Shown piece by piece: positions 7,882 to 38,042 of a stretch of DNA of 38,358 nt (the first letter of the stretch is position 1; every line of letters begins with the position of its first letter). The notes under the pieces are model-generated. The model had not been told where the DNA came from and searched no databases. It was given only the letters and a program-made list of their open reading frames with translations. The DNA is from a virus (lineage: Duplodnaviria; Caudoviricetes): positions 1-38,358 of IMG/VR virus record IMGVR_UViG_3300049924_000319; one strand, given 5' to 3'. Both the position numbers and the translations under genes were made by a program.

Positions 7882-9936
7882 TCACATCACTTTGCAGGAA
7901 CGGACAAGGGCGGACAGTGTGCTGATGCGTTCAGCCCGCGCGTCATAGTCGGCAGTGTCAAACATCCAGTTCAGGTCGGCCATGGACTGGTCGCGCTGCA
8001 AGGCCGCAATCTCGGCCTCAACGGCTTTCAGCTGGGCATCGGTTGCGGCCGCAACCTCCGGCGCTGTTATGTCGTCGGTGCCGCCTGTGGCTTTTGGCGT
8101 GACTGGTCTTTCGTCTGCAACGCGGCCCGCTGCTGCAACAGCTGCACGTTCTCCTGCAGCAATTCCTTGGCCTGTGGATCCTGTGTCGCCGCCGCTGCCG
8201 CGTTGTACTGGTCTGCCAGCTTGGTCCAGTCGTGCATTGTAGTCCTCCAGGTCGAAGGGTGGCGGTTCAGGCACATTCTGCAGCGCCGGATCCAGATCGC
8301 GCGCCGCATCGGCATTTCTCATTACACGCTGGATCAGGGCTTCATCAAGGGCCACGCGCGGCGTTTCCCGTGGATTGTCGGCCAGAAATTGCGCCGCGAA
8401 TTGCACGTCCTCATGGCTGATGTCAACGCCATCCGCCCGCATGGCCTGATATTCAGATGCAATATCCTCGCCATAGCGCGCCGCCATGTCGGCATCACTG
8501 CCCCAGCGTGCCTTGAAGGCGCTGTTGCTGGCCTTGGCATGGGCTTCGGCATCCAGTTGTGCCTGAATGTCGCGGTCATGCAGGGAGACGATTTTCTCAC
8601 CGGACAAGTGCCGGTCCACCAGGTCATAGAGATCCTGCTCGGTGAGCTGGCGCAAGCCATCGCCACCGGTTTCCACCAGATAACCGGCCTGCTGCAGTTT
8701 TTCCATCATCATGCCGGGTGGCACGCCCTTGCCAATGCGGGTGGAGCCGCTGCCGAACAATCCGCCGCCAGACACCTCCTCGCCTTTCCTGCGGAAGGCC
8801 GGTCCATAAAACGTCATGCTGTTGCGGGTGTTGACGCCGCGCGCCGCCAGTTCACCGGCATCATCGCGCAAGCCACCGGCCTTGGCCATGAATTCCATCA
8901 CGTTCAAGGGCCGGCTCAAACTGCCGCGCCGTTTGGATCCATGGCCGGTCAGGTCAATCTCAATGAGCGGCCCCTCATCTTCGGCCGCCTTGATGCTGGC
9001 GGCCACACGCAACTCATGTTCGGCTGCAGGAATATGGTCAGGCCGTGCCGCCGCAATGGCCGCGTTGGCTTCCGTCTCCTGCAGGGCACCGCGCGCTTCG
9101 GGTGATAGCGTGTCGGCAATCGGGGCGAGAACGGTAGCGGCATCTTGGTCACTCCCATTGATGGCTTTTTCAATCGGCGTGCCTGCTGGCACTTGCAACA
9201 TGCGTTGCAGCACTTCACCTGCAGCCCGCCCGCCTGCTCCCAAAATGCCTGCAAAGCCAGCGGCCGTCAGCGTGTTGCGCACGCCTTCATCAAAGCCGGA
9301 TGACAAGCCCACCTCGGCCCGCCAGGCCTGCACCTGGGGCTGCATCGCTGCTTCCACGGCACCATTGATCACCGCTTCCTTGAGGGCGGTTTTCAGAATG
9401 CGGGTGGCCGCCAGCTTGCCAGCACTTTCACCAGCCCCCAGCATCATGGTGCCCATCTGCACGGGATCACGCAGCGAGCCTGCAAAGCCGCCCCCCAGCA
9501 CCGTGGCCCATTTCGCGGCAAAGTCATCGCGTGACGCCAGGTTCATATCAAAGCGGGTGCCCGCCTCGCGCGCCTGGGCTTCGGCATCGGCCGTGATCGG
9601 CACTTGGGCGCGGATCTCGCGCGCCTTGTCCGGATATTGGTTCTGCAGGTTGCTGACAGAAGTGGTCCAGGTCTTCTGCGCATTGGGATCACGCACAATG
9701 GCCTTGCCGGCCGGAATGATGGCACGCAGCGGATTTTGCAGGCGAGTGCCCGTGGCCTTGAAAATTGCATCGTTGCGCGCGTCATAGGCGCGTTCCAGCG
9801 CCAGTTCGGAGGCATTGAAATTATCGGCAAACAGCGCCGCATCACGCGCCGATGCATAAAGGTCAGAGGTGCTGGCCTCGCCCCCGGCAAAACTTGGCCG
9901 GGAGGGGATCAGCGGCTGTTCGTAGATGAAACTCAC
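7882..9936 (-). CDS. Internal virion/DNA-ejection protein
   Basis: 684 aa, Ala-rich; position in the cluster. Confidence 0.65.
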   Translation of the reverse strand: MSFIYEQPLIPSRPSFAGGEASTSDLYASARDAALFADNFNASELALERAYDARNDAIFKATGTRLQNPLRAIIPAGKAIVRDPNAQKTWTTSVSNLQNQYPDKAREIRAQVPITADAEAQAREAGTRFDMNLASRDDFAAKWATVLGGGFAGSLRDPVQMGTMMLGAGESAGKLAATRILKTALKEAVINGAVEAAMQPQVQAWRAEVGLSSGFDEGVRNTLTAAGFAGILGAGGRAAGEVLQRMLQVPAGTPIEKAINGSDQDAATVLAPIADTLSPEARGALQETEANAAIAAARPDHIPAAEHELRVAASIKAAEDEGPLIEIDLTGHGSKRRGSLSRPLNVMEFMAKAGGLRDDAGELAARGVNTRNSMTFYGPAFRRKGEEVSGGGLFGSGSTRIGKGVPPGMMMEKLQQAGYLVETGGDGLRQLTEQDLYDLVDRHLSGEKIVSLHDRDIQAQLDAEAHAKASNSAFKARWGSDADMAARYGEDIASEYQAMRADGVDISHEDVQFAAQFLADNPRETPRVALDEALIQRVMRNADAARDLDPALQNVPEPPPFDLEDYNARLDQAGRPVQRGSGGDTGSTGQGIAAGERAAVAAAGRVADERPVTPKATGGTDDITAPEVAAATDAQLKAVEAEIAALQRDQSMADLNWMFDTADYDARAERISTLSALVRSCKVM

Positions 9937-15744: not shown

Positions 15745-16385
15745 CAGTCCTCATATCCGGAACGGGCATCACCCGGTCCATAGCGCACGGCGGTGATGGG
15801 GTTGCGGCCGCCATCAATTTCAGGGGCGGGCTGGGCCTGCGCATCAAGGGCTGTGGCCACGGCAAATTGCCCGCCTTCCCCCTGCATCTGTTCCGAGCCA
15901 TAGGCCTCAAGCCGCAACTTGGCGCGCAACGTCCAGTCCTCGCGCAAGGCACCGGCATATTCCGCCATCAGGCACAGGTTGGACAGTTCGCGGAAATAGG
16001 CCGGCCACCAATCAGGATCCGGCTTCCAGGGATATTCGCACCACAGGGCTTCCACATTGGCCAGAATGTGCTGGCCATTGGGTTCCCAGTTGGTGAAGGG
16101 CCGCGCATTGACGGCCGGACTGTCATAGATGGCGCGGGGCGGCCCCAGGCGGTCGGGCGGCAACAAGAATTTATAGGTCCAGCCAAACACCGGCGCATCC
16201 GTCTCGCGTGACAGGGCGGCTTTTTTCTTGGTGAAGTGCCAGGGGTATTTGCCCATCAGATCTTCAATGACGGACCAATAGAGATCAACGGCGTTCTTTC
16301 CGGCAGGTCCCGGCTGGTCGAAACTTTGCATCCTGATCCCGCCAATGCGGGAAATGGCACGGTTGGCAATCGTCACATGGTCCAT
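15741..16385 (-). CDS. Tail tubular protein A / adaptor
   Basis: IANRAISRIG, YPWHFT and FGWTYKFLLPPD motifs. Confidence 0.85.
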   Translation of the reverse strand: MDHVTIANRAISRIGGIRMQSFDQPGPAGKNAVDLYWSVIEDLMGKYPWHFTKKKAALSRETDAPVFGWTYKFLLPPDRLGPPRAIYDSPAVNARPFTNWEPNGQHILANVEALWCEYPWKPDPDWWPAYFRELSNLCLMAEYAGALREDWTLRAKLRLEAYGSEQMQGEGGQFAVATALDAQAQPAPEIDGGRNPITAVRYGPGDARSGYEDW

Positions 16386-21085: not shown

Positions 21086-21528
21086 GGATCATCCACCTTG
21101 CTGGTCGTTTCGCAAACCATAGGGGCAGCAGTCGCCCTGTTCCGACAAAGGTATAAAATGCGCTGCCCTGCCACGGCTTCCTCACGCCACTGGCCGAAGG
21201 CATTGGCCAGGCGCAATCCGGTTGCGTGTTCGGGCAGCACGCGCGCGAAGATCGGCAGGTCATCCGGCACCAGCGGCAACAGCCCGCGCAACAGGCGGAT
21301 GATCTGCAGGCCTTGGCGTGGCACCAGGCGGCCGCGTGTTGCAAACCACAGTTCACGGCTGTCAGCGTGCTGGTACAGGCCCACCATGGCCACTGGCCTG
21401 TCATCAGCGAGCAGCGTGGCGGCCGGTGAGAACATGACTTGCCCCACCACCATGGAAAGCTGGTAGGGATCCAACAAGCCAATCACGGCCGGAATGTCAG
21501 CAAGCGTGGCGGGCCGGCAGGTGATCAT
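21082..21528 (-). CDS. GNAT-fold acetyltransferase-like protein
   Basis: ITCRPATLADIPAV start; ELWF and ARV...TGLRLANAFG motifs. Confidence 0.6.
   Translation of the reverse strand: MITCRPATLADIPAVIGLLDPYQLSMVVGQVMFSPAATLLADDRPVAMVGLYQHADSRELWFATRGRLVPRQGLQIIRLLRGLLPLVPDDLPIFARVLPEHATGLRLANAFGQWREEAVAGQRILYLCRNRATAAPMVCETTSKVDDP
21116..21149 (-). promoter_or_regulatory. Putative late promoter copy 3 (TTTGTCGGAACA-N16-TATGGT)
   Basis: Inside the 3' end of the GNAT gene, upstream of the portal operon. Confidence 0.72.
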
Positions 21529-23081
21529 ACCTTGAAAACATCGAAGTCTGAACCGCCACGGGCTGGCACATCGTCGTCATCGTCATCATCGCGCCGTCTG
21601 GATCCAATCTTGTGGCGGCTGCGGCCACCCGCCGCCTCACCTTTCGACAATCCCACAACGCCGAAAATATCCAGCACGATGTACTGCAACGCATCATGCG
21701 GGTTGCTGTGCAAATTCTTCTTCGGCAGCGTGGCAGGCACGGCATTCTTGCCAACCCCAACCAGCTCGTATTTGTAATGGGAATTAAAACCCTTGCGCAA
21801 TACGCGGCAGCGCGGTGAGAGCAACAGCCCCTGTTCATCCAATGGCCCTGGGTTGTGCGTCAGCAATTGCCGCACGCCTTCAAGCCGGGCCAGCAATTCG
21901 TTTGTTGGCGCTGCCATCAGTTCAAGGCCCATCGCTTCGCTGACGATTTCCGCCCAACTCTGCACGCCCTGCTCTTTGTCGCCGCCTGAAAATCCGGCCG
22001 GGTCGCAAGTGGCGGCAATGATTTCGCAACTGGCATAGCGTTCCAGCAGGAATTGCTTGCACTGCAGGCCGAAGCTGCGCGAACCGATGCGGGCTTGTGG
22101 CACCAGTTCATCAATCACGCGCAGCTGGCCACGCCAGTCATATTGCGCCACCACCATGGCAGGCCCCAGCACGCCTTGGTCAAAGCCAAGGCGCAGGCCC
22201 ACACCGCGCAACGGCAGCAGGTCTTGTTCCGCCACATGCCGTTCATCCGAGTATTCGGCATAGACCGGCAGGCCATCGCGTGAATAGCCATACTGCCCGT
22301 CAATCATCCGGCGCACATAGTCGGGCCGGTGCGCGTTCAGCTTTGCCAGATCTTCATAGGATTGCCGCGACACGCCTGCCCGGTTCTCACCGCGCGGGCT
22401 GCGGCCGGATGGCTGTTTGTAGATCTGATAGCCATCAGGTTTTAATTCCTCAAACAGGTTGTAGGTGTAATTATCCACGTCTGGCGGGTTCATGTCGCCA
22501 ATCACGCCGGAGAAATAATTCGGCACCCGCTCGTTGTTGCTGTCAACCGTGAAGGCTGATGCAGGCAACAGCCGCTGTGGCGGATAGCGCCGCTGCAACA
22601 CACGGCCGAGAATGTTTGTCAGCACCGCTTCATTCAGCGTGTCGCCTTCATTCAGATAGGCCCAGGATCCTTCAAGGCCTTTCAGCGCATCTTCAATATC
22701 GGCATGTTCATCCAGCGCCCGGAAGTCCATCTGGAATTCCAGCACCACACCGTTCTCCTGCTCGAACCGCAACAGGTGCGAAGCCTGCCGGCCTTTCGAT
22801 CCCGTCCACTTGCCAATGCTTTCGGGGAACCACTGCCACCAGGACGGGATCACCGTGTCCCACAGCTTGGTGTAGGTATCGCGGAACACAAAGCCCTTGA
22901 AGCGCCGCACCTTGTCCACGCACACCGGCATGGCCGATGCCACGGTCAGCGCATCGAAGAAGCAGGCATTGGTCTTGCCGGAACCAATCGGCCCCATGAT
23001 CCAGCGCACCGGCTTGCGGCCGCGCAGAAAACTTTCTGCAACAGGCCCAGGCGGCCGGTAGGTCTGGACGTTGAAACTCAT
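21525..23081 (-). CDS. terL: Terminase large subunit
   Basis: Walker A GPIGSGKT, YLNEG Walker B, GDMNPP, nuclease motifs LGFD, CDPAG and HSNPHDALQY; start MSFNVQ preferred. Confidence 0.92.
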   Translation of the reverse strand: MSFNVQTYRPPGPVAESFLRGRKPVRWIMGPIGSGKTNACFFDALTVASAMPVCVDKVRRFKGFVFRDTYTKLWDTVIPSWWQWFPESIGKWTGSKGRQASHLLRFEQENGVVLEFQMDFRALDEHADIEDALKGLEGSWAYLNEGDTLNEAVLTNILGRVLQRRYPPQRLLPASAFTVDSNNERVPNYFSGVIGDMNPPDVDNYTYNLFEELKPDGYQIYKQPSGRSPRGENRAGVSRQSYEDLAKLNAHRPDYVRRMIDGQYGYSRDGLPVYAEYSDERHVAEQDLLPLRGVGLRLGFDQGVLGPAMVVAQYDWRGQLRVIDELVPQARIGSRSFGLQCKQFLLERYASCEIIAATCDPAGFSGGDKEQGVQSWAEIVSEAMGLELMAAPTNELLARLEGVRQLLTHNPGPLDEQGLLLSPRCRVLRKGFNSHYKYELVGVGKNAVPATLPKKNLHSNPHDALQYIVLDIFGVVGLSKGEAAGGRSRHKIGSRRRDDDDDDDVPARGGSDFDVFKV

Positions 23082-23289
23082 GGCCGGTCCCCAGCCCAAC
23101 CATGCGAGGCCCGCGCCCCGTGCCCGTCCCGCGCCCGGCATCTCAAATCGTTTTTTTTACGACTGGCAGCAGAAGGGCGGGAAGGATTTGAACCGGCAAA
23201 ACCCGCGCGCCAACTGGCCTCATAAGGGAGGGAACGCGATTTCGGGGACACCCCCCACATGGGCGCATGGGTGGAATTGAGGCCACCCC

Positions 23290-23441
23290 CCTCATGCGCG
23301 CCATGCAGGCCATGAGGCTTCGCAGCTGATTTTCTATCAGCTGCACCAGTGGCGCAAGTCATTGACTTGTCAACATATTCACCTTGCGTGAGACGGCTAC
23401 TCATGAGACGCGGCCTTTTCATCAGCGCTAAGTGATTGATT
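23290..23441. promoter_or_regulatory. att-like/IHF-containing DNA site in the terS-terL gap
   Basis: IHF consensus AATCAATCACTTA (minus strand, 23429-23441), TGAGACG x2, palindrome GCAGCTGAT-N5-ATCAGCTGC. Confidence 0.6.
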
Positions 23442-23933
23442 TTGTTCAACCGGCACAAGGTCAAGCGCAAAGGGGTTGGCCTCGCCCGTCTCACCCGCGC
23501 GCGGCGCATTGAGGTTGACCACGAACAGCTTGCCCACGGTGCCCATGTCCACCTGGACGGATTGCGGCATGGCCTGCAGCGTGTAGCGGGCCACAAACTC
23601 GCGGCACGATTGCTGGTATTTGGCAGCATCCAGCATGTCGCACCTAAGCGCATCGCGCAGCACGGCCAGCGGCATGTCGCAGATTTGCGCGGCCGCAATC
23701 ACCGGGTGCCGGTGATGGCTCAACACATAATCGGCCAGTTCCTTGGTGGCCTTGTTCATGGCGCCCTTTGGCCTGCCGGGCGTGGTGCGCTTGCCGTCGA
23801 TCACCACATCACCGAGCAAGGGCAGCTGCGCCACGGGATCCATCAGGTCCAGTTGCTCGGCATCAGCGCCCGGAATTTCAGCCGCCGCCACGCGCGCCCC
23901 AAGCGCGGCCTGCAGGCCGGTTTGATCAGCCAT
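23397..23933 (-). CDS. terS: Terminase small subunit (putative)
   Basis: GRPKGAMNKAT motif; upstream of terL. Confidence 0.7.
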   Translation of the reverse strand: MADQTGLQAALGARVAAAEIPGADAEQLDLMDPVAQLPLLGDVVIDGKRTTPGRPKGAMNKATKELADYVLSHHRHPVIAAAQICDMPLAVLRDALRCDMLDAAKYQQSCREFVARYTLQAMPQSVQVDMGTVGKLFVVNLNAPRAGETGEANPFALDLVPVEQNQSLSADEKAASHE

Positions 23934-23949
23934 ATCCGCCCCCTATTTT

Positions 23950-24190
23950 ATCCGGTTCCGGACGGTTCCGGTGCGGTTCCGGGCTAAGTGGCTGTTCTTG
24001 CCTCTTATTATATCCATCCGGAACGGTGGAACGATGGAACCACATATCTCCACATGCGCGCGCGCGCGTATGCACACATAAGGGCCTGTGCGGTTCCACC
24101 GTTCCACCGTTCCGTTTTGCCATTTTGTCTAGTGTTTCCCGGTCTTTGGTTCCGGAACCGCTGATCTGCTCCGGCGGTTCCACCGTTCCG
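23950..24190. repeat. Iteron array, putative replication origin
   Basis: About 13 GTTCC/GGAAC copies, including 8-bp-period triplets in opposite orientation (24020-24040, 24093-24113) and an AT-rich patch. Confidence 0.65.
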
Positions 24191-24232
24191 CCCCCAACCG
24201 CCAAGGCGCAGCTTAGAAGTTACTTGCAACGC

Positions 24233-24266
24233 ACCTTACGGGCCGGGGCCGGGGTGTTCCGACAAA
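24233..24266 (-). promoter_or_regulatory. Putative late promoter copy 4 (TTTGTCGGAACA-N16-TAAGGT)
   Basis: Upstream of terS and after a terminator. Confidence 0.72.
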
Positions 24267-24295
24267 CCCGGCCAATCGGGTTCGAGGGTTTGCAA

Positions 24296-24332
24296 GAAAA
24301 AACGCCCGGCGCAGCATGTGGCTGGCCGGGTG
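24296..24332 (-). terminator. Rho-independent terminator after the antirepressor gene
   Basis: CCCGGC-CAGC...GCTG-C-GCCGGG stem followed by T6. Confidence 0.6.
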
Positions 24333-24352
24333 CGGGGCGTGATGAGGATTGA

Positions 24353-25195
24353 TCAGATCAGCGGCGGATCATCGAGAAAGCGGGCTGGAATATAGGTTCC
24401 ACGCGCTTCCACGCTGCCATAGCGCTGCTTTGCGGCCACCGCTGCACCCCGCAGGCGGCGCAGCACCCGGCGCCAGCGGCCATAGTCCCATTTGCTGCCG
24501 GAGAACACACTTTCAAGCCAGTGGTGCGCATTGGCCACCAGAAAACCTTCCGCTGGTTCACGCGCAATCCTGAGGCCATGGGCCGCCAGCATGGCCTGCG
24601 CCTGTTCATCGTCGTTCAGGGCGGCTTCCAGCGCCTCGCGGATGAACCAGGACGAGCCTGCGGGCTTCTGCGCCAGGATTTCCTCCAGGCAGGCGCGGGC
24701 TTCCTCTTGGCCGCCGTCTGGCTGCATGTCAGGGATGGGCAGGCCGATTTCGGACCACAGCGAACGGGCCCTGGCATGGCCGAACAGATGCCGCGCCTCG
24801 CGCACCAGGGCCAGCTTGGCGGTGAGGATGGGCACTGCCTCGCCGGTGATGGGCTGGGGTTCGTCGGCCGCCGTTTCAAAGCGGCCACTGCGGCGCAGAC
24901 TGGGCAGCACCTCATGCGCCAGCCAGCGCTTGAACCGCTCAGCTTCCGGCTTGCGGGAGGTGAAAATGAGCCGGAATACACCCGGTTCGGAGACGATGAT
25001 TGCCTTTTTGCTGCCGCTGGGGTCGCTAATCGCGACCTCAGCTCTTTCGTCATCATCCAGCCGGGCAAGTGCATGGCTCTCGTTTTTGATGTCCAGCACA
25101 TGACAAACATCACGGCCAACAAACCACGGTGCATTTTCGCGCGACACGGTTCTGACCAACTGATCTTCAAAAATAAAGGGGGTAACAGCGTTCAT
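24353..25195 (-). CDS. BRO-N domain antirepressor
   Basis: PFIFEDQLVR...PWFVGRDVCHVL...LDDDE...VSEPGVFRLIFTSRKPEAERFKRWLAHEVLPSLRRSG. Confidence 0.9.
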   Translation of the reverse strand: MNAVTPFIFEDQLVRTVSRENAPWFVGRDVCHVLDIKNESHALARLDDDERAEVAISDPSGSKKAIIVSEPGVFRLIFTSRKPEAERFKRWLAHEVLPSLRRSGRFETAADEPQPITGEAVPILTAKLALVREARHLFGHARARSLWSEIGLPIPDMQPDGGQEEARACLEEILAQKPAGSSWFIREALEAALNDDEQAQAMLAAHGLRIAREPAEGFLVANAHHWLESVFSGSKWDYGRWRRVLRRLRGAAVAAKQRYGSVEARGTYIPARFLDDPPLI

Positions 25196-25198
25196 GGC

Positions 25199-25426
25199 TC
25201 AGCCCTCCAGCTTGATGAAAAAACTGTGGCCGCTGTCATCGGCATGGCCGCAATCATTGCAGCTGCAGTGGTCGTTCACATCCACCAGCACGAAGCGCTG
25301 CAGGCTGGCATCCCAGATGGCGCTGGCATCGTGGCAGACGCTGGCTGACCGGCATTTGGGGCAGCGGTAATCAAAGCGCAGGAAGTCCCTGCGCTGAGGG
25401 TGGGTTTGGGCAAGGGCATGGGTCAT
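25199..25426 (-). CDS. Small zinc-ribbon protein
   Basis: CPKC...CNDC; first gene after the C4-like RNA. Confidence 0.65.
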   Translation of the reverse strand: MTHALAQTHPQRRDFLRFDYRCPKCRSASVCHDASAIWDASLQRFVLVDVNDHCSCNDCGHADDSGHSFFIKLEG

Positions 25427-28367: not shown

Positions 28368-30229
28368 AGCCTCATGTCCTCTGCAGGCGTGGCCACCGGC
28401 AGCGGCGCCACGCGGTTCAGCACTGTTTCGAGTTTGAAGGCCGTGCCTTTTGCCTTCACGCCTGTCACCCAGCCTTGCGCCACGCGATAGGTGTCCTGTG
28501 GCGCCTGCCTGAGCGCGCCGCTCCATACACCTGCGCCCAGTTCGCCTTGCCATTTCGAGCCGAAGAACAGCTTGGTCAGCAGCGTGTGGTTGTTGGGAAT
28601 GAACAATTCCATGTGCTGCGCGGTGAGCGTGGGCTTGAGCAGCGTCAGCCCGGTTTTCTGTGACAGGGCACGCGCTTCATCGAAATCCATCTTGCCATGC
28701 CACAGGCGTTCCAGCACCTCGCCCATGGTTTGCTGGCCGCCACCCTTCCAGGCTTCAATCGGCGCTGACAGCACGTGATTGAGGCACAGGCGCCAGTTTT
28801 CTTCCGCATCCTCATATTCCACCATGTGGCGGGCTTCAAACAGGTCAGCCCAGTACTTGCCATCCTCGGCCAGCGCCTGCATGGGCAATTGCAATTCGCC
28901 GGCATCATTGCCGATCAGCAGGTCGGCACAGGCCAGAAGCGTGCCGAAGGTGTCCTGGCCACGGCTGTCATGGCCGGCGCGTGAGAGCGCCGCGCGATAG
29001 AAATTCCAGGTTGATGTGAAGCGCGGCCAGCCATCAATCATCTGCCGCATGATCATGCGCCCCATGCGGGCCAGTTTCGGCTGGTCGAGGTCGGGCGGCG
29101 TGGAGCCTTGCGGCAAGCGCCGCAAGCGCAGCAGCGCCATGCGTGACAGGTCCTGCGGTTCAAGCGGCGGTGAATTGATCGAGGAAAACGCAAAGCACGA
29201 GCGCGCATTGAATTGCGTGCCCTTGTGTTCACTGCCGCCGCGCAGCATCAGGTCACCAGAGGCCGCCAGCCGTGCCAGTTCCAGAATGGCCTTGGCCTTG
29301 CGGTTGTCGGCCTTGCCTTCCAGTTCATCCACGGCAACCGGCAGGCTGTCACTGCGCAGGTTCTGGTAAATGCCGGCCGCCGTTGTGTCGGCCGCCTTGA
29401 TCAGCATGTTGCCGAAAATCATTTTCATGATTTTCTGCAGGGTGGATTTGCCCGTGGCCTTGTCGCCGGTCATGTAGATGGCGGGCCGCCAGGGCAGCGC
29501 CCCGCCAATCATCGCAGCGCCAATCCAGCCCATGAACAGCACCGGGTCCATGTCCGGCCGTTCCCAGTTGAAGGTCTTGAGCAGCGCATGGAGTTTGACG
29601 GCGGGTCCACCGGACAGCCCCATGGGCTTCGGCCACGGGTGCATCACGGGCGGCCGCGTCATGTACACATCGCCATCATATTCGCCCAAGCCTTGCGTGT
29701 GCCCCTGCGCATAAAGCTGCGTGCCGCAATGCACGGCCAGCGAGCCATCACTCATCAGCCAGGCGCCACGCCCGCGTGCCCGTTCCACGGCATCCCAGGG
29801 CCCCTTGTGGGCACAGGCCGCCATCAGGGTTTCGCGCACTTTTTCGGCGCGCCAGGCCACCACGGCGCCATCCTTGTCTTTCCTCGGCCACGCCCAATAG
29901 AGATAGAGGTGCCGCCCCATGAACAGCGCGTTGATGTTGTTCTGCGAGAAATCTTTCGACGCCATGTCGTTCAGCTGGCCCAGCGTGTCGAGAAACCAAT
30001 AGGTCTTGCCGTCAACCCCCAGGGGGATGACAGGGCAATCGGGCGGCAGGCCAATGTCGTCGGCATCCCATTCACCGGCGCGCGTGCCTTCGCGCTCGTC
30101 GCCCGGCACGGGATCGCGCGCCGCCAGCTTTTTCAGCCAGGCGCTGTTGTCCTGTTCGGCTTCGGCAATGGCAGCGGCCAGGCCGTCTGCGCCTTCATCG
30201 GCCAGCGTGGTGTTGGGCTTGATCATCAA
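28364..30229 (-). CDS. P-loop ATPase, putative replicative helicase
   Basis: Walker A GDKATGKST, Walker B VAVDE, FAFSSIN, DLSR; downstream of primase. Confidence 0.8.
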   Translation of the reverse strand: MMIKPNTTLADEGADGLAAAIAEAEQDNSAWLKKLAARDPVPGDEREGTRAGEWDADDIGLPPDCPVIPLGVDGKTYWFLDTLGQLNDMASKDFSQNNINALFMGRHLYLYWAWPRKDKDGAVVAWRAEKVRETLMAACAHKGPWDAVERARGRGAWLMSDGSLAVHCGTQLYAQGHTQGLGEYDGDVYMTRPPVMHPWPKPMGLSGGPAVKLHALLKTFNWERPDMDPVLFMGWIGAAMIGGALPWRPAIYMTGDKATGKSTLQKIMKMIFGNMLIKAADTTAAGIYQNLRSDSLPVAVDELEGKADNRKAKAILELARLAASGDLMLRGGSEHKGTQFNARSCFAFSSINSPPLEPQDLSRMALLRLRRLPQGSTPPDLDQPKLARMGRMIMRQMIDGWPRFTSTWNFYRAALSRAGHDSRGQDTFGTLLACADLLIGNDAGELQLPMQALAEDGKYWADLFEARHMVEYEDAEENWRLCLNHVLSAPIEAWKGGGQQTMGEVLERLWHGKMDFDEARALSQKTGLTLLKPTLTAQHMELFIPNNHTLLTKLFFGSKWQGELGAGVWSGALRQAPQDTYRVAQGWVTGVKAKGTAFKLETVLNRVAPLPVATPAEDMRL

Positions 30230-30273
30230 TGGGCATGGGGCGGCCGGGGAGAAACGGCCGCCCTGCTCTCCTG

Positions 30274-31008
30274 CTATTTGCGGCGCTTGGATTTGCGGCT
30301 GTCAGTCACGGCGGGGTTTGCTTCATCGCCATCCACGCTGCCGCCTTCGCTGGCCTCCTCGTCTTCGTCCACCACATCCCCGCCTTCACCGGCCCGTTCC
30401 GTGTCGGGCCTGGCCAGGATCACCGGCTTGTCAGGCAGTGGGTTTTCTGGAACAGCGGCGTGGCCCGCAATATTTGCAGACACGTGACCGGGTTCATCAG
30501 CATCCAGTGCTCGAACGCTGCCATCTTCAGGACCATTTCCTCCTGCGTCTGTTCCGGGCTGGATGGGGTCCGCTGCCTGTTCAGCGCCTGCCTCGTCCGC
30601 AACCTGCGCCGCCCGGCCCCAGTCATGTGTGGCATAAATGGTTTTCTCATGGTCATCCTCTTCAATGAGTGTTTCATAGGATGATGCAGCAAGTGTAGGC
30701 GCGGCCGCTGCAGGCGCTTCGATCAGCGCATTGAGGATGGGCACCGATACAGTGAACAGCGTGAAGCACAGTTTCACATCAGCCGCACGTTCCGCATAGG
30801 GCAGATCAGGGTTGAAGGTGCCCTTGCCCTGCTGGTGCAGGTAAAAGCTTTCCGCACTGAGCCGGTGCTGCACCACTTCATCAAACAGCTCTTGCGCCTG
30901 GGGCGTGGCCCAGTCGTGGAACTGCAAGGCTTCCTCTGCATCATCCGCGAAGGCCTGCTGGGCAATGCGCACGGCGAGTTGCGCCGCATGGGTTTTGGAC
31001 GTGATCAT
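30274..31008 (-). CDS. Hypothetical protein with acidic disordered C-terminal half
   Basis: 244 aa, coupled to the primase stop. Confidence 0.65.
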   Translation of the reverse strand: MITSKTHAAQLAVRIAQQAFADDAEEALQFHDWATPQAQELFDEVVQHRLSAESFYLHQQGKGTFNPDLPYAERAADVKLCFTLFTVSVPILNALIEAPAAAAPTLAASSYETLIEEDDHEKTIYATHDWGRAAQVADEAGAEQAADPIQPGTDAGGNGPEDGSVRALDADEPGHVSANIAGHAAVPENPLPDKPVILARPDTERAGEGGDVVDEDEEASEGGSVDGDEANPAVTDSRKSKRRK

Positions 31009-35294: not shown

Positions 35295-35579
35295 ATGTCA
35301 GACCAACTGAAACCCGTCATCGTGCGCACCCAATCTGCGGGCGCGCATTTTGGCTATCTGAAAGCCCGTGACGGCAAGGAAGTGCAGCTGGAAAAATCCC
35401 GCCGCCTCTGGCGCTGGTTCGGGGCCTGGACCTTGAGCGAGATTGCCACATCAGGCCTTGACGTGAAGAAAAGCAAGATCGGCGCACCCGTCTCCATCGT
35501 GCTGACGGAAGCCATCGAGATCATCGACTGCACGGCAGAAGCCGCTGGCATCATCGAGAGCGCCACATGGGCGGCGTAA
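35295..35579 (+). CDS. DUF6948-like phage protein
   Basis: VIVRTQSAGAHFGYL...V.L..SRRLWRW.GA.TLSEIA..G...LTEAIEIIDCT; AGGAG RBS. Confidence 0.8.
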   Translation: MSDQLKPVIVRTQSAGAHFGYLKARDGKEVQLEKSRRLWRWFGAWTLSEIATSGLDVKKSKIGAPVSIVLTEAIEIIDCTAEAAGIIESATWAA

Positions 35580-35824
35580 GCACCAAGACCGGCGACGGCT
35601 ACGGCTCCGGCTACGGCTACGGCTCCGGCGACGGCTCCGGCGACGGCTCCGGCGACGGCTACGGCTCCGGCGACGGCTCCGGCGACGGCTCCGGCGACGG
35701 CTACGGCTCCGGCTACAGCGACGGCTACGGCTCCGGCTACAGCGACGGCTACGGCGACGGCTACGGCTCCGGCTACGGCTACGGCTCCGGCTCCGGCGAC
35801 GGCTCCGGCGACGGCTCCGGCTGA
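35567..35824 (+). CDS. (Gly-Asp/Tyr/Ser)n repeat peptide (translation unproven)
   Basis: 85-aa ORF overlapping the upstream stop; TGA immediately after the last repeat. Confidence 0.5.
   Translation: MGGVSTKTGDGYGSGYGYGSGDGSGDGSGDGYGSGDGSGDGSGDGYGSGYSDGYGSGYSDGYGDGYGSGYGYGSGSGDGSGDGSG
35591..35821 (+). repeat. Hexamer tandem array GGC(GAC/TAC/TCC) x38
   Basis: Directly visible; two AGCGAC variant units. Confidence 0.97.
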
Positions 35825-35909
35825 ACAGGGGAATACTTCGGAATGGCATCGAGCCATTCCGAAGTCTGTCTATCGACACCAAAACCAACCTCACATGAGA
35901 GACGAAAAC

Positions 35910-36375: not shown

Positions 36376-37551
36376 ATGGCAGCAGCCACCATCACCATCA
36401 AATTGCAGCATTGCGTCTGGCGTGACGGCCGCCCGCGCTTTGTGCCAGGCCCGCGCCTGCGCGCCCTGGGCTTCACCGGCCGGGATCTGAAAGCGCCGGA
36501 TGGCACATGGATGGATCTGGCTGATGTGCAGGCCTTCCAGACCGACCTGCAGGCCGACATTGCGCGGCGCGCCGCCCTGCAGGTGGCGGGCAAGCGCCTG
36601 CCGCGTGCAAAGCAGTCCTCCTTCTATCGCGTGGCGGATCTGATGCAGGACACTTTTGAGCGGCCCAAGTTCCAGAAACAGCAGGCCACCAATGTCAAGG
36701 TGCTGGCGCCCGCCACCATCACCTCTTACAAGAAAAGCGCCACCGCCCTGCAGAAGTTCGATGCCGATATCTGGGTGTCGCCGGTGCTGGCCATCAACAC
36801 GGTGATTGCCTTTGATCTCTATGAACGCCTCTATGCCGAAAAAGGCCTGCACCAGGCGCGCGCCGTCATGGCGCTGTTGCGCATGGCCTGGAACTGGGCG
36901 CGCAAGAAAGGCAAGGCGCATCAAAATCCCTTCCTCATGCTGGACATGGACATGCCGGAAGGCCGCGTGCGCCACCAGACGCCACAGCACATTCGCCACC
37001 TCATGGCCACCTGCGATGCCAACAGGCGCCCGGAACTGGGCGACATGGTGCTGCTCGCCGTGCTGTCCTGCCAGCGGCAGACGGAACGGCTGGCGCTGGA
37101 GGGCGGCCACATCAGCGGCGGCCGCATCCAGCTGCGCCAGTCGAAGCGCGGCAAGCATGTGTCGTTCGCCGTGGTGGCAGACCTTGCCGGCCGCTTGGCC
37201 GCTGCCCGCCAGCGCCGCGAGGCCCACACGGTGCAATGGCCGCATGTGGTGATAGATGAACAGCGGCAAGTGCCCTGGGCGGCCTCGGCCTACAGCCATG
37301 AGTTCACCCGCCTGGTCAAGCTGGCGGCCGTGGACTGCCCGGACTTGCAAGGCTTGCAGGACCGTGACCTGCGTGACGTGGGCCTGCACTGGGCCAAGCA
37401 GGGCGGCGCTGAATTCGACAAGCGCCGCAAACTCTCAGGCCACGCCGCCACAGCCGAAGCCATGGAAGAAAAACACTACACCGGCCCCACCGTCACAGAT
37501 GGCGATGCCGCTGTCTCCGCCATCGTCTCAACATGGGAGAAGGGAAAATGA
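36376..37551 (+). CDS. int: Tyrosine recombinase/integrase
   Basis: CQRQTE (R), QSKRG (K), RDLR, SGH, KHY (Y); adjacent to attP. Confidence 0.9.
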   Translation: MAAATITIKLQHCVWRDGRPRFVPGPRLRALGFTGRDLKAPDGTWMDLADVQAFQTDLQADIARRAALQVAGKRLPRAKQSSFYRVADLMQDTFERPKFQKQQATNVKVLAPATITSYKKSATALQKFDADIWVSPVLAINTVIAFDLYERLYAEKGLHQARAVMALLRMAWNWARKKGKAHQNPFLMLDMDMPEGRVRHQTPQHIRHLMATCDANRRPELGDMVLLAVLSCQRQTERLALEGGHISGGRIQLRQSKRGKHVSFAVVADLAGRLAAARQRREAHTVQWPHVVIDEQRQVPWAASAYSHEFTRLVKLAAVDCPDLQGLQDRDLRDVGLHWAKQGGAEFDKRRKLSGHAATAEAMEEKHYTGPTVTDGDAAVSAIVSTWEKGK

Positions 37552-37808: not shown

Positions 37809-37841
37809 GCGGCACGGCCGGAACAATCCCAAAACAGCCGC

Positions 37842-38042
37842 CGTCTCACATGAGACGTGAGACGCTCGGACTTCGTCTCATGTTCTCATTCTGTTTTGCG
37901 CAAGTCATTGAAAGGATGGTGGGCGATGCAGGATTCGAACCTGCGACCCGCTGATTAAGAGTTATCTTGAAGCATAATGCTTTCAATCACTTGGATAATC
38001 TCACCATGAGATATTCAGCAAAAATCAGCTGAAAGTCTCATG
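37842..38042. promoter_or_regulatory. attP arms with arm-type repeats and IHF-like sites
   Basis: CGTCTCA/TGAGACG at 37842, 37851, 37858 and 37874; related copies at 37998, 38007 and 38035; IHF-like sites at 37901-37913 and 37981-37993. Confidence 0.7.
37917..37962 (-). other. attP: attP core: 3' half of tRNA-Lys(CTT)
   Basis: Minus strand reads ACTCTTAATCAGCGGGTCGCAGGTTCGAATCCTGCATCGCCCACCA: anticodon loop, T-arm and CCA, with no 5' half. Confidence 0.93.

Follow-up and report, generated by a model that had tools for sequence, protein, structure and literature searches.

A predicted integrase half-site conserved beside the terminase genes of uncultured phages and prophages

The window, the whole 38,358-nucleotide stretch of viral DNA analysed here (IMG/VR record IMGVR_UViG_3300049924_000319), is a complete circular phage genome with an end repeat of 202 bp. 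It encodes structural proteins of the podovirus type along with TerL, a primase, a repressor and a tyrosine integrase. The features that concern us lie around the terminase genes and beside the integrase gene:

21525-23081, minus strand: large terminase gene, terL (phrog_2, E 2.8e-9; 32% identity to BcepC6B TerL).
23243-23294, minus strand: two G-tracts, a putative pac or late-control module.
23323-23343, minus strand: symmetric core CAGCTGA-TAGAAAA-TCAGCTG, with its spacer at 23330-23336.
23355-23367, minus strand: IHF-2, between arms and core, placed by the consensus W at a fixed offset.
23388-23395, minus strand: arm-type repeat R2 (GTCTCAC), immediately beyond the stop codon of terS, matching the phage's own attP arms.
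23397-23933, minus strand: putative small terminase gene, terS, an open reading frame labelled by its position upstream of terL.
23403-23410, minus strand: arm-type repeat R1, GTCTCAT, also matching the attP arms.
23429-23441, minus strand: IHF-1, a distal site fitting the IHF consensus.
36376-37551, plus strand: heterobivalent tyrosine integrase gene (phrog_1), with an N-terminal beta-sheet/helix domain.
37840-37911, plus strand: attP left (P) arm, with GTCTCA repeats in both orientations and then an IHF site; relatives have the same layout.
37917-37961, minus strand: 3' half of tRNA-Lys(CTT), from a tRNA profile match, downstream of the integrase gene.
37962-38042, plus strand: attP right (P') arm, with an IHF site and inverted arm repeats around a core-like half site.

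The terS stop (23397) and the terL ATG (23081) leave a gap of 315 bp, and the acidic C-terminal tail of the putative TerS overlaps IHF-1 and R1. This protein matched no named family in PHROGs or Pfam; its nearest named Atlas cluster, DUF5681 at 0.87, is a lead only. A TerS homologue precedes terL in 44 records. Neither the integrase (Int) nor the putative TerS of the window had a match among 50,697 phage records, and single-protein searches gave one relative in viral contigs and none in genomes, so that an alignment was required. Three scans with a TerL alignment gave 134 loci, from which 51 relatives were taken whole or as prophage regions. They are uncultured phages and prophages, mostly of alphaproteobacteria as judged by their record titles. 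A quick Int tree and FastTree trees were built, with long-branch warnings.

A profile of the terS-end element was built from 25 seed elements and applied to 52 records, window included. It placed the element in 48 of them, with one strong match per record, indicating a single site per genome. Among the 27 non-seed records 23 were recovered, three of which were weak (7-11 bits) and accepted by position. Three of the records that were not placed (G022, G039 and G045) show the repeats by eye and one, G024, is without repeats. In de-duplicated terL loci, seeds included, the element scored at least 15 bits in 19 of 20 loci with TerL identity of at least 45%, in 36 of 46 at 36-45% and in 7 of 25 below 36%. 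Co-variation was counted in 38 records, the ten placed records that do not contain their att site being left out.

In the direction of terL the element reads IHF-1, R1, R2, IHF-2, core and G-tracts, with the arms flanking the core on one side only. IHF-1 fits 8-9 of 9 positions of the consensus in 40 of 48 records, and R1 and R2 are 15 bp apart in 42 of 48. Most records have both repeats in frame within the TerS tail; in 11 of 44, however, R2 is not part of the terS reading frame, so it is the DNA that is constrained. For IHF-2, 34 of 46 records have the consensus W at offset 80-81; the site has one orientation in 29 of these and the opposite one in five, including the window. The window site is thus flipped relative to that of most relatives about a shared base, which suggests that it is the bend centre that is conserved. 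In 46 of 48 records the core is followed, at a distance of up to 260 bp, by a run of G or C. No arm-like repeat lies within 15 nt after the core in any of 38 records; what comes after the core is the G-tracts.

Other repeats occur nearby and elsewhere in the late region. There are four exact copies of TGTTCCGACAAA (window 5331, 17836, 21138 and 24255), three of them located between genes or beside hairpins, in the late region and upstream of terS; this is a candidate late promoter or operator. Just upstream of terS, at 24019-24190, GGAAC-type direct and inverted repeats probably form a replication origin. The matching region of G021 (about 30158-30394, in window-like orientation) contains TGAGAC repeats, the hexamer of the Int arms of that phage.

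At the attachment site, the predicted 7-bp overlap is 37955-37961, and host tRNA contigs diverge at 37962. In the prophages inspected, tRNA-type att sites lie at both bounds and the terS-end site is intact. The integrase has residues R234, K257, R333, H356 and Y368, present in 40 of 40 sequences, and its predicted model (pLDDT 87.7) finds full-length lambda Int (1z1b, E 2.8e-11) as best fold match. As modelled, the cognate enzyme has an arm-binding domain and intact catalytic residues.

The P arms hold a further repeat. In the window (37876-37897) and in relatives, GTTC repeats about 11 bp apart lie between the arm repeats and the IHF site; they are missing from the terS-end site and are candidate excisionase sites. 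A search for Xis itself identified no candidate. Integrase-like second open reading frames occur near att in four relatives (joined-record coordinates: G001 9404-9916, G013 24464-25309, G015 1-705, G048 49881-50138), that of G001 resembling the N-terminal 50 residues of the integrase; these may possibly encode free arm-binding domains acting as regulators. Left of attR, G048 and G051 carry a further arm of the P type, which has another variant of the repeat and lies away from any integrase gene; it is left over from an earlier element that used this tRNA-Lys. Tandem 6/12-bp repeats at window 35536-35871 overlap the end of a DUF6948 reading frame and have length variants in public contigs.

A preliminary description of this locus, made from the sequence alone, had noted five motifs shared between the terS end and attP, or resembling the tRNA target, and had proposed a second attP-like site. 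The motifs are as described, with two qualifications. GCGCAAGTCATTGA occurs only at 23352-23365 and 37898-37911; it is an IHF-type site, the flipped IHF-2 of the window, and does not serve as an integrase-specific mark, reaching at least 11 of 14 positions at the corresponding place in only 3 of 48 records, window included. A single 14-mer is in any case weak, as the window has 189 repeated 14-mers and a match of 14 nt to attP also turns up in 10 of 2970 random windows. TCAATCACTT is confined to 23430-23439 (minus strand) and 37983-37992. TGAGACG is found 11 times, at 23389 and 23404, in four copies within 37842-37880 and at five other places. AAAATCAGCTG, part of the core, recurs only once (23323-23333, minus strand, and 38021-38031). 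The arm-like heptamer that had been aligned after it is not conserved: no record of 38 reaches 6 of 7 positions against its own repeat. The P'-arm half site matches the phage's own terS-end core at 10-11 of 11 positions in five of 38 records (G000, G001, G004, G012, G051). GCTGA-N7-TCAGC is present once, at 23325-23341. Taken as a set, the motifs go far beyond chance: the load of 7-mers shared by site and attP is 41, whereas 2970 random windows average 5.4 and go no higher than 20.

The arm repeats of the element follow the integrase. The 31-bp repeat zone has on average 12.0 7-mer matches to the phage's own att arms and 2.2 to those of other phages (38 records, each having the element and one att arm or more). 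The own-att count is non-zero in 38 of 38 and ranks first in 17, and its sum is reached by none of 20000 shuffles, which ignore kinship. Five records match their own arms weakly, with counts of 1-3 (G001, G002, G007, G041, G051). There are more than ten repeat forms, GTCTCAC, GTCGGAC, GTTGGAC, GTCTACC, GTCTTAT, GTCCCAC and GGCACAC among them. Because the shuffles ignore kinship, a comparison with protein identities was added (40 records, in which Int and TerL identities are themselves correlated, r 0.73). Likeness of repeats has a partial correlation of 0.30 with Int identity given TerL (0 of 5000) and of 0.07 with TerL given Int (p 0.19). One relative, G047, separates the two proteins. By TerL it is closest to the clade of the window (59% to G001), and its TerS falls in that clade as well, whereas its Int, att arms and site repeats are all of the GTCGGAC clade; judged by these sequences, it is a natural swap of integrase against terminase.

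The core follows the integration target. Its better palindrome half matches the phage's own att half in at least 5 of 6 positions in 32 of 38 records, a count that none of 20000 shuffles reaches; the six below that level are G023, G026, G047, G053, G056 and G057. With a single record per target half the figure is 10 of 14. Cores switch with their targets: GGCAGG occurs with a tRNA T-arm target (G004, G012), GGTGA with tRNA-Asn (G049), ACAGA with tRNA-Leu (G028) and TTAA with non-tRNA targets (G029, G036). The att cores of the last two have the form TTAA-N7-TTAA, the shape of a CtrA box.

The spacer does not follow the target. There are 34 different spacers in 38 records, T being first in 37 and A last in 35, and the outer three bases are palindromic in only two of 38, so the spacer is directional. 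Compared with the att overlap in either orientation, it agrees at five or fewer of seven positions in 38 of 38 records, none reaching six or seven. Lambda-type exchange requires identical 7-bp overlaps, as described in PMC4880445 and PMC1807965. A second tRNA target for the spacer was considered and rejected, as spacers are generally unlike anticodon loops. An exception is TTGAAAA, which is the spacer in G005, G008 and G051 and also the tRNA-Glu overlap in G026 and G056.

Arms and core thus co-vary with the phage's own att arms, tRNA target and integrase, the pattern that the preliminary description had offered as a check, and this supports Int, with IHF, as the cognate protein. On the sequence comparisons we consider Int to be very probably the protein that the terS-end site serves. 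The proposed second attP survives as an integrase/IHF site and not as an attP proper: the arms are one-sided, the overlap is unlike attB and the prophages are bounded elsewhere. Because its arms are one-sided and its spacer is unmatched to att, the element is read as a half-site resembling lambda attL, conserved and composed of predicted arm repeats, an IHF bend and a symmetric core with a 7-bp spacer.

Relatives with a moved module or another recombinase retain a similar arrangement. G061 has the family integrase; its terS abuts terL, and arms, core and G-tract lie upstream of terS and match its own att. G062 likewise has abutting terS and terL with the module upstream of terS, and its integrase is unrelated to the family. 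Its att is at a tRNA-Val, and the relevant pair in that genome is:

15945-16014 and about 39953-40021 (L273, L275): the two stretches that hold the right att arm of G062 and its copy.

The copy stands just before the G-tract and consists of a core, 15 bp, an IHF site and two CTCCACC repeats 11 bp apart. Core-to-IHF distance and the 11-bp repeat spacing are those of the att arm, the spacer agrees at 5 of 7 positions, and the order of arm and core is reversed relative to the family. G024 is without the family integrase and element; it encodes a short, unrelated XerC-like protein (L173 5619-6278, minus strand) and has a lone dif/lox-like 11-6-11 palindrome after the terS stop (378-405 of L172). 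No second copy of the palindrome and no tRNA-type att was seen in G024, and the palindrome could instead be an attachment site. L259 keeps this palindrome with another spacer (about 2070-2098), in a record not long enough to reveal any recombinase. The G-tracts are retained in G024, L259, G061 and G062. By sequence, then, three recombinase types carry a fitting site beside the G-tract module, in one or two records each.

We propose that Int recombines one copy of the terS-end site with another, closing a terminally redundant genome or interconverting monomers and multimers. We give this reading a probability of about 0.5. Within it, circularisation is a plausible role that falls somewhat short of even odds, and multimer conversion makes up the rest. 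IHF-2 would fold R1 and R2 back to the core, giving an Xis-independent complex like that of lambda attL. The mismatched spacer would bar exchange with attP, attB, attL and attR whilst permitting exchange with an identical second copy, and such copies would arise in terminally redundant DNA and in multimers. If packaging begins at the G-tracts, with its first cut made upstream of the site, first-headful DNA would have the site at both ends. Early-expressed Int could then circularise this DNA, doing the job of Cre in P1. Being reversible, the reaction would also join circles or separate them, precisely at the packaging origin. A cut between core and G-tract would leave one site copy per virion DNA, and circularisation by exchange of copies would fail.

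Besides the co-variation of arms and core, the varied spacers and the sites of G062 and G024, the evidence for copy-by-copy recombination can be summarised as (i) exchange with att is unlikely, given the unlike spacers, the inverted orientation of att with respect to the site in 13 of 38 records and the placing of int opposite to terL, facing it, in 44 of 44; (ii) the P22 pac lies in terS and P1 uses Cre; (iii) none of 35 records encodes RecT, ERF, AAA_24 (Sak4) or Rad52. In P22 and lambda the circularisation job is performed by Erf and Red. The absence of known annealing proteins is weak evidence, as host RecA could suffice. Among the joints listed for Logan contigs of six runs (contigs only) there was no junction between site and att. 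In the likely source run contig depth was 17.5 over 19.1-23.8 kb and 9.3 over 23.8-25.5 kb. A packaging start in terS would agree with such a step, but there is one figure per contig and the others range over 11-18, so the depths are not counted as evidence. Contig starts near terL had, by eye, no common position relative to the site.

In the main rival, Int and IHF are bound to the site but no strands are exchanged; the bound proteins would hold back or time the start of packaging, or late transcription, for as long as the prophage remains integrated. All the co-variation with att arms, target and Int fits binding alone, free drift of the spacer is predicted equally by binding without exchange, and the module is always found where the late genes begin. 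For P22, packaging in situ ahead of excision is described as lowering the titre (PMC8575938). Such a gate fits less well with G024, which showed no att and has a single lox-like site in this position, with the module lying upstream of terS in G061 and G062, and with the reversed arm and core of the latter. In addition no promoter or terminator consensus was found in 23000-24400, which is weak evidence for these hosts. We regard the gate as unlikely, at a level that still deserves attention. The preliminary description had suggested two roles; its self-by-self site fits these data better, and its checkpoint coupling excision to terL fits them less well, given the layout of G061 and G062 and the lone site of G024. 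A related proposal, that Int pairs two site copies on a concatemer, or nicks the core, and so signals mature DNA to the terminase, would account for the tight linkage to the G-tract module and is like the twin-ring pac synapsis model of T4 (PMC9611059). It is improbable: it supposes a contact between Int and terminase, and three unrelated recombinase types would have to signal to the same terminase family.

The remaining explanations differ in what they make of the likeness to attP. The site could recombine with attP or attL and so excise or invert the 14.5-kb segment between them as a PICI-like unit; site arms and P arm both point into this segment, which holds int, the repressor, the primase and terS. 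The spacer mismatch in every record and the orientations of att and int given above count against this, and no such junction is among the contig joints listed, which leaves the idea very little room. Much the same low probability attaches to a terminase site of the lambda cos type, in which TerS and IHF would bind the repeats, TerL would cut the palindrome and the likeness to attP would be incidental. IHF site, direct repeats and symmetric site do resemble cosB and cosN, but the repeats follow Int and not TerL (as in the partial correlations and in G047), the palindrome follows the tRNA target, and phages with other recombinases carry other sites. That the element is left over from an ancient att duplication, or is a side effect of coding for the TerS tail, is barely credible. 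In-frame R1 and R2 in most records would agree with it, whereas the repeat has more than ten variants, every one of them fitting the att of its own phage, R2 leaves the reading frame in a quarter of the records (11 of 44) and the spacing is fixed across TerL identities of 33-66%.

The terS-end element is therefore best described as real, selected and, in the literature searched, undescribed, with a function that its sequence only suggests. Titles and abstracts, among which older subscription journals are sparsely covered, contained no description of an integrase site at a packaging origin. Phage integrases are commonly treated as enzymes of lysogeny only, and a conserved second site at the packaging module, re-tuned when integrase or target changes, means a selected role outside integration. 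Copy-by-copy recombination, if it closes the genome, would explain how temperate headful phages circularise without annealing proteins. More tentatively, unrelated recombinase families may plant a private, spacer-coded second site at the packaging origin, one enzyme both integrating the genome and closing or concatenating it. Int would then be essential for lytic growth and replace recombination of the Red/Erf type. The phages would also offer natural pairs of mutually inert sites for one recombinase, and dozens of arm and core variants, each paired with the sequence of its enzyme.

Among known systems, lambda attL and its P' arm share with the element a core with a 7-bp overlap, an IHF site and tandem arm sites. 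Exchange between two attL sites is the 'bent-L' pathway of lambda. At attL the IHF bend alone lets Int bridge arm and core, as described in PMC4880445. In contrast to attL, the terS-end half-site is a permanent locus additional to attP, from which it is 14.5 kb distant. It lies in and after terS and has another, distal IHF site, and its spacer differs from the att overlap. In P1 a phage-coded tyrosine recombinase, Cre, is described as circularising injected DNA (PMC8198154), and Cre/loxP as also resolving multimers (PMC10999674). Like loxP, the terS-end site is single per genome and has a non-palindromic spacer. Cre differs in being the dedicated enzyme of a plasmid prophage, and loxP has neither arms nor IHF sites; in these phages both tasks would fall to the integrase, the sites being distinguished by their spacers. 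The sites of G024 and L259, which have no accessory arms, look closer to a true lox.

The layout of PICIs and SaPIs, with int, repressor, primase and terS bounded by integrase sites, is also recognisable, except that the bounding sites here have non-matching spacers and variable relative orientation, and no excised or inverted form was seen. The BcepC6B and BPP-1-like podoviruses have related TerL (32%) and gene order with unrelated TerS and Int, and no such element was seen by eye at the terS end of BcepC6B. The lambda cosB layout combines an IHF site with direct repeats, as at the terS end. Packaging origins of the pac and cos kind (P22, SPP1, T4, lambda cosB) resemble the element in lying in or beside terS, the P22 pac being within that gene (PMC9611059); unlike them, its repeats and palindrome follow integrase and tRNA target and not the terminase. 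The element is thus like a lambda attL half-site in build and, if the copy-by-copy reading holds, loxP-like in purpose.
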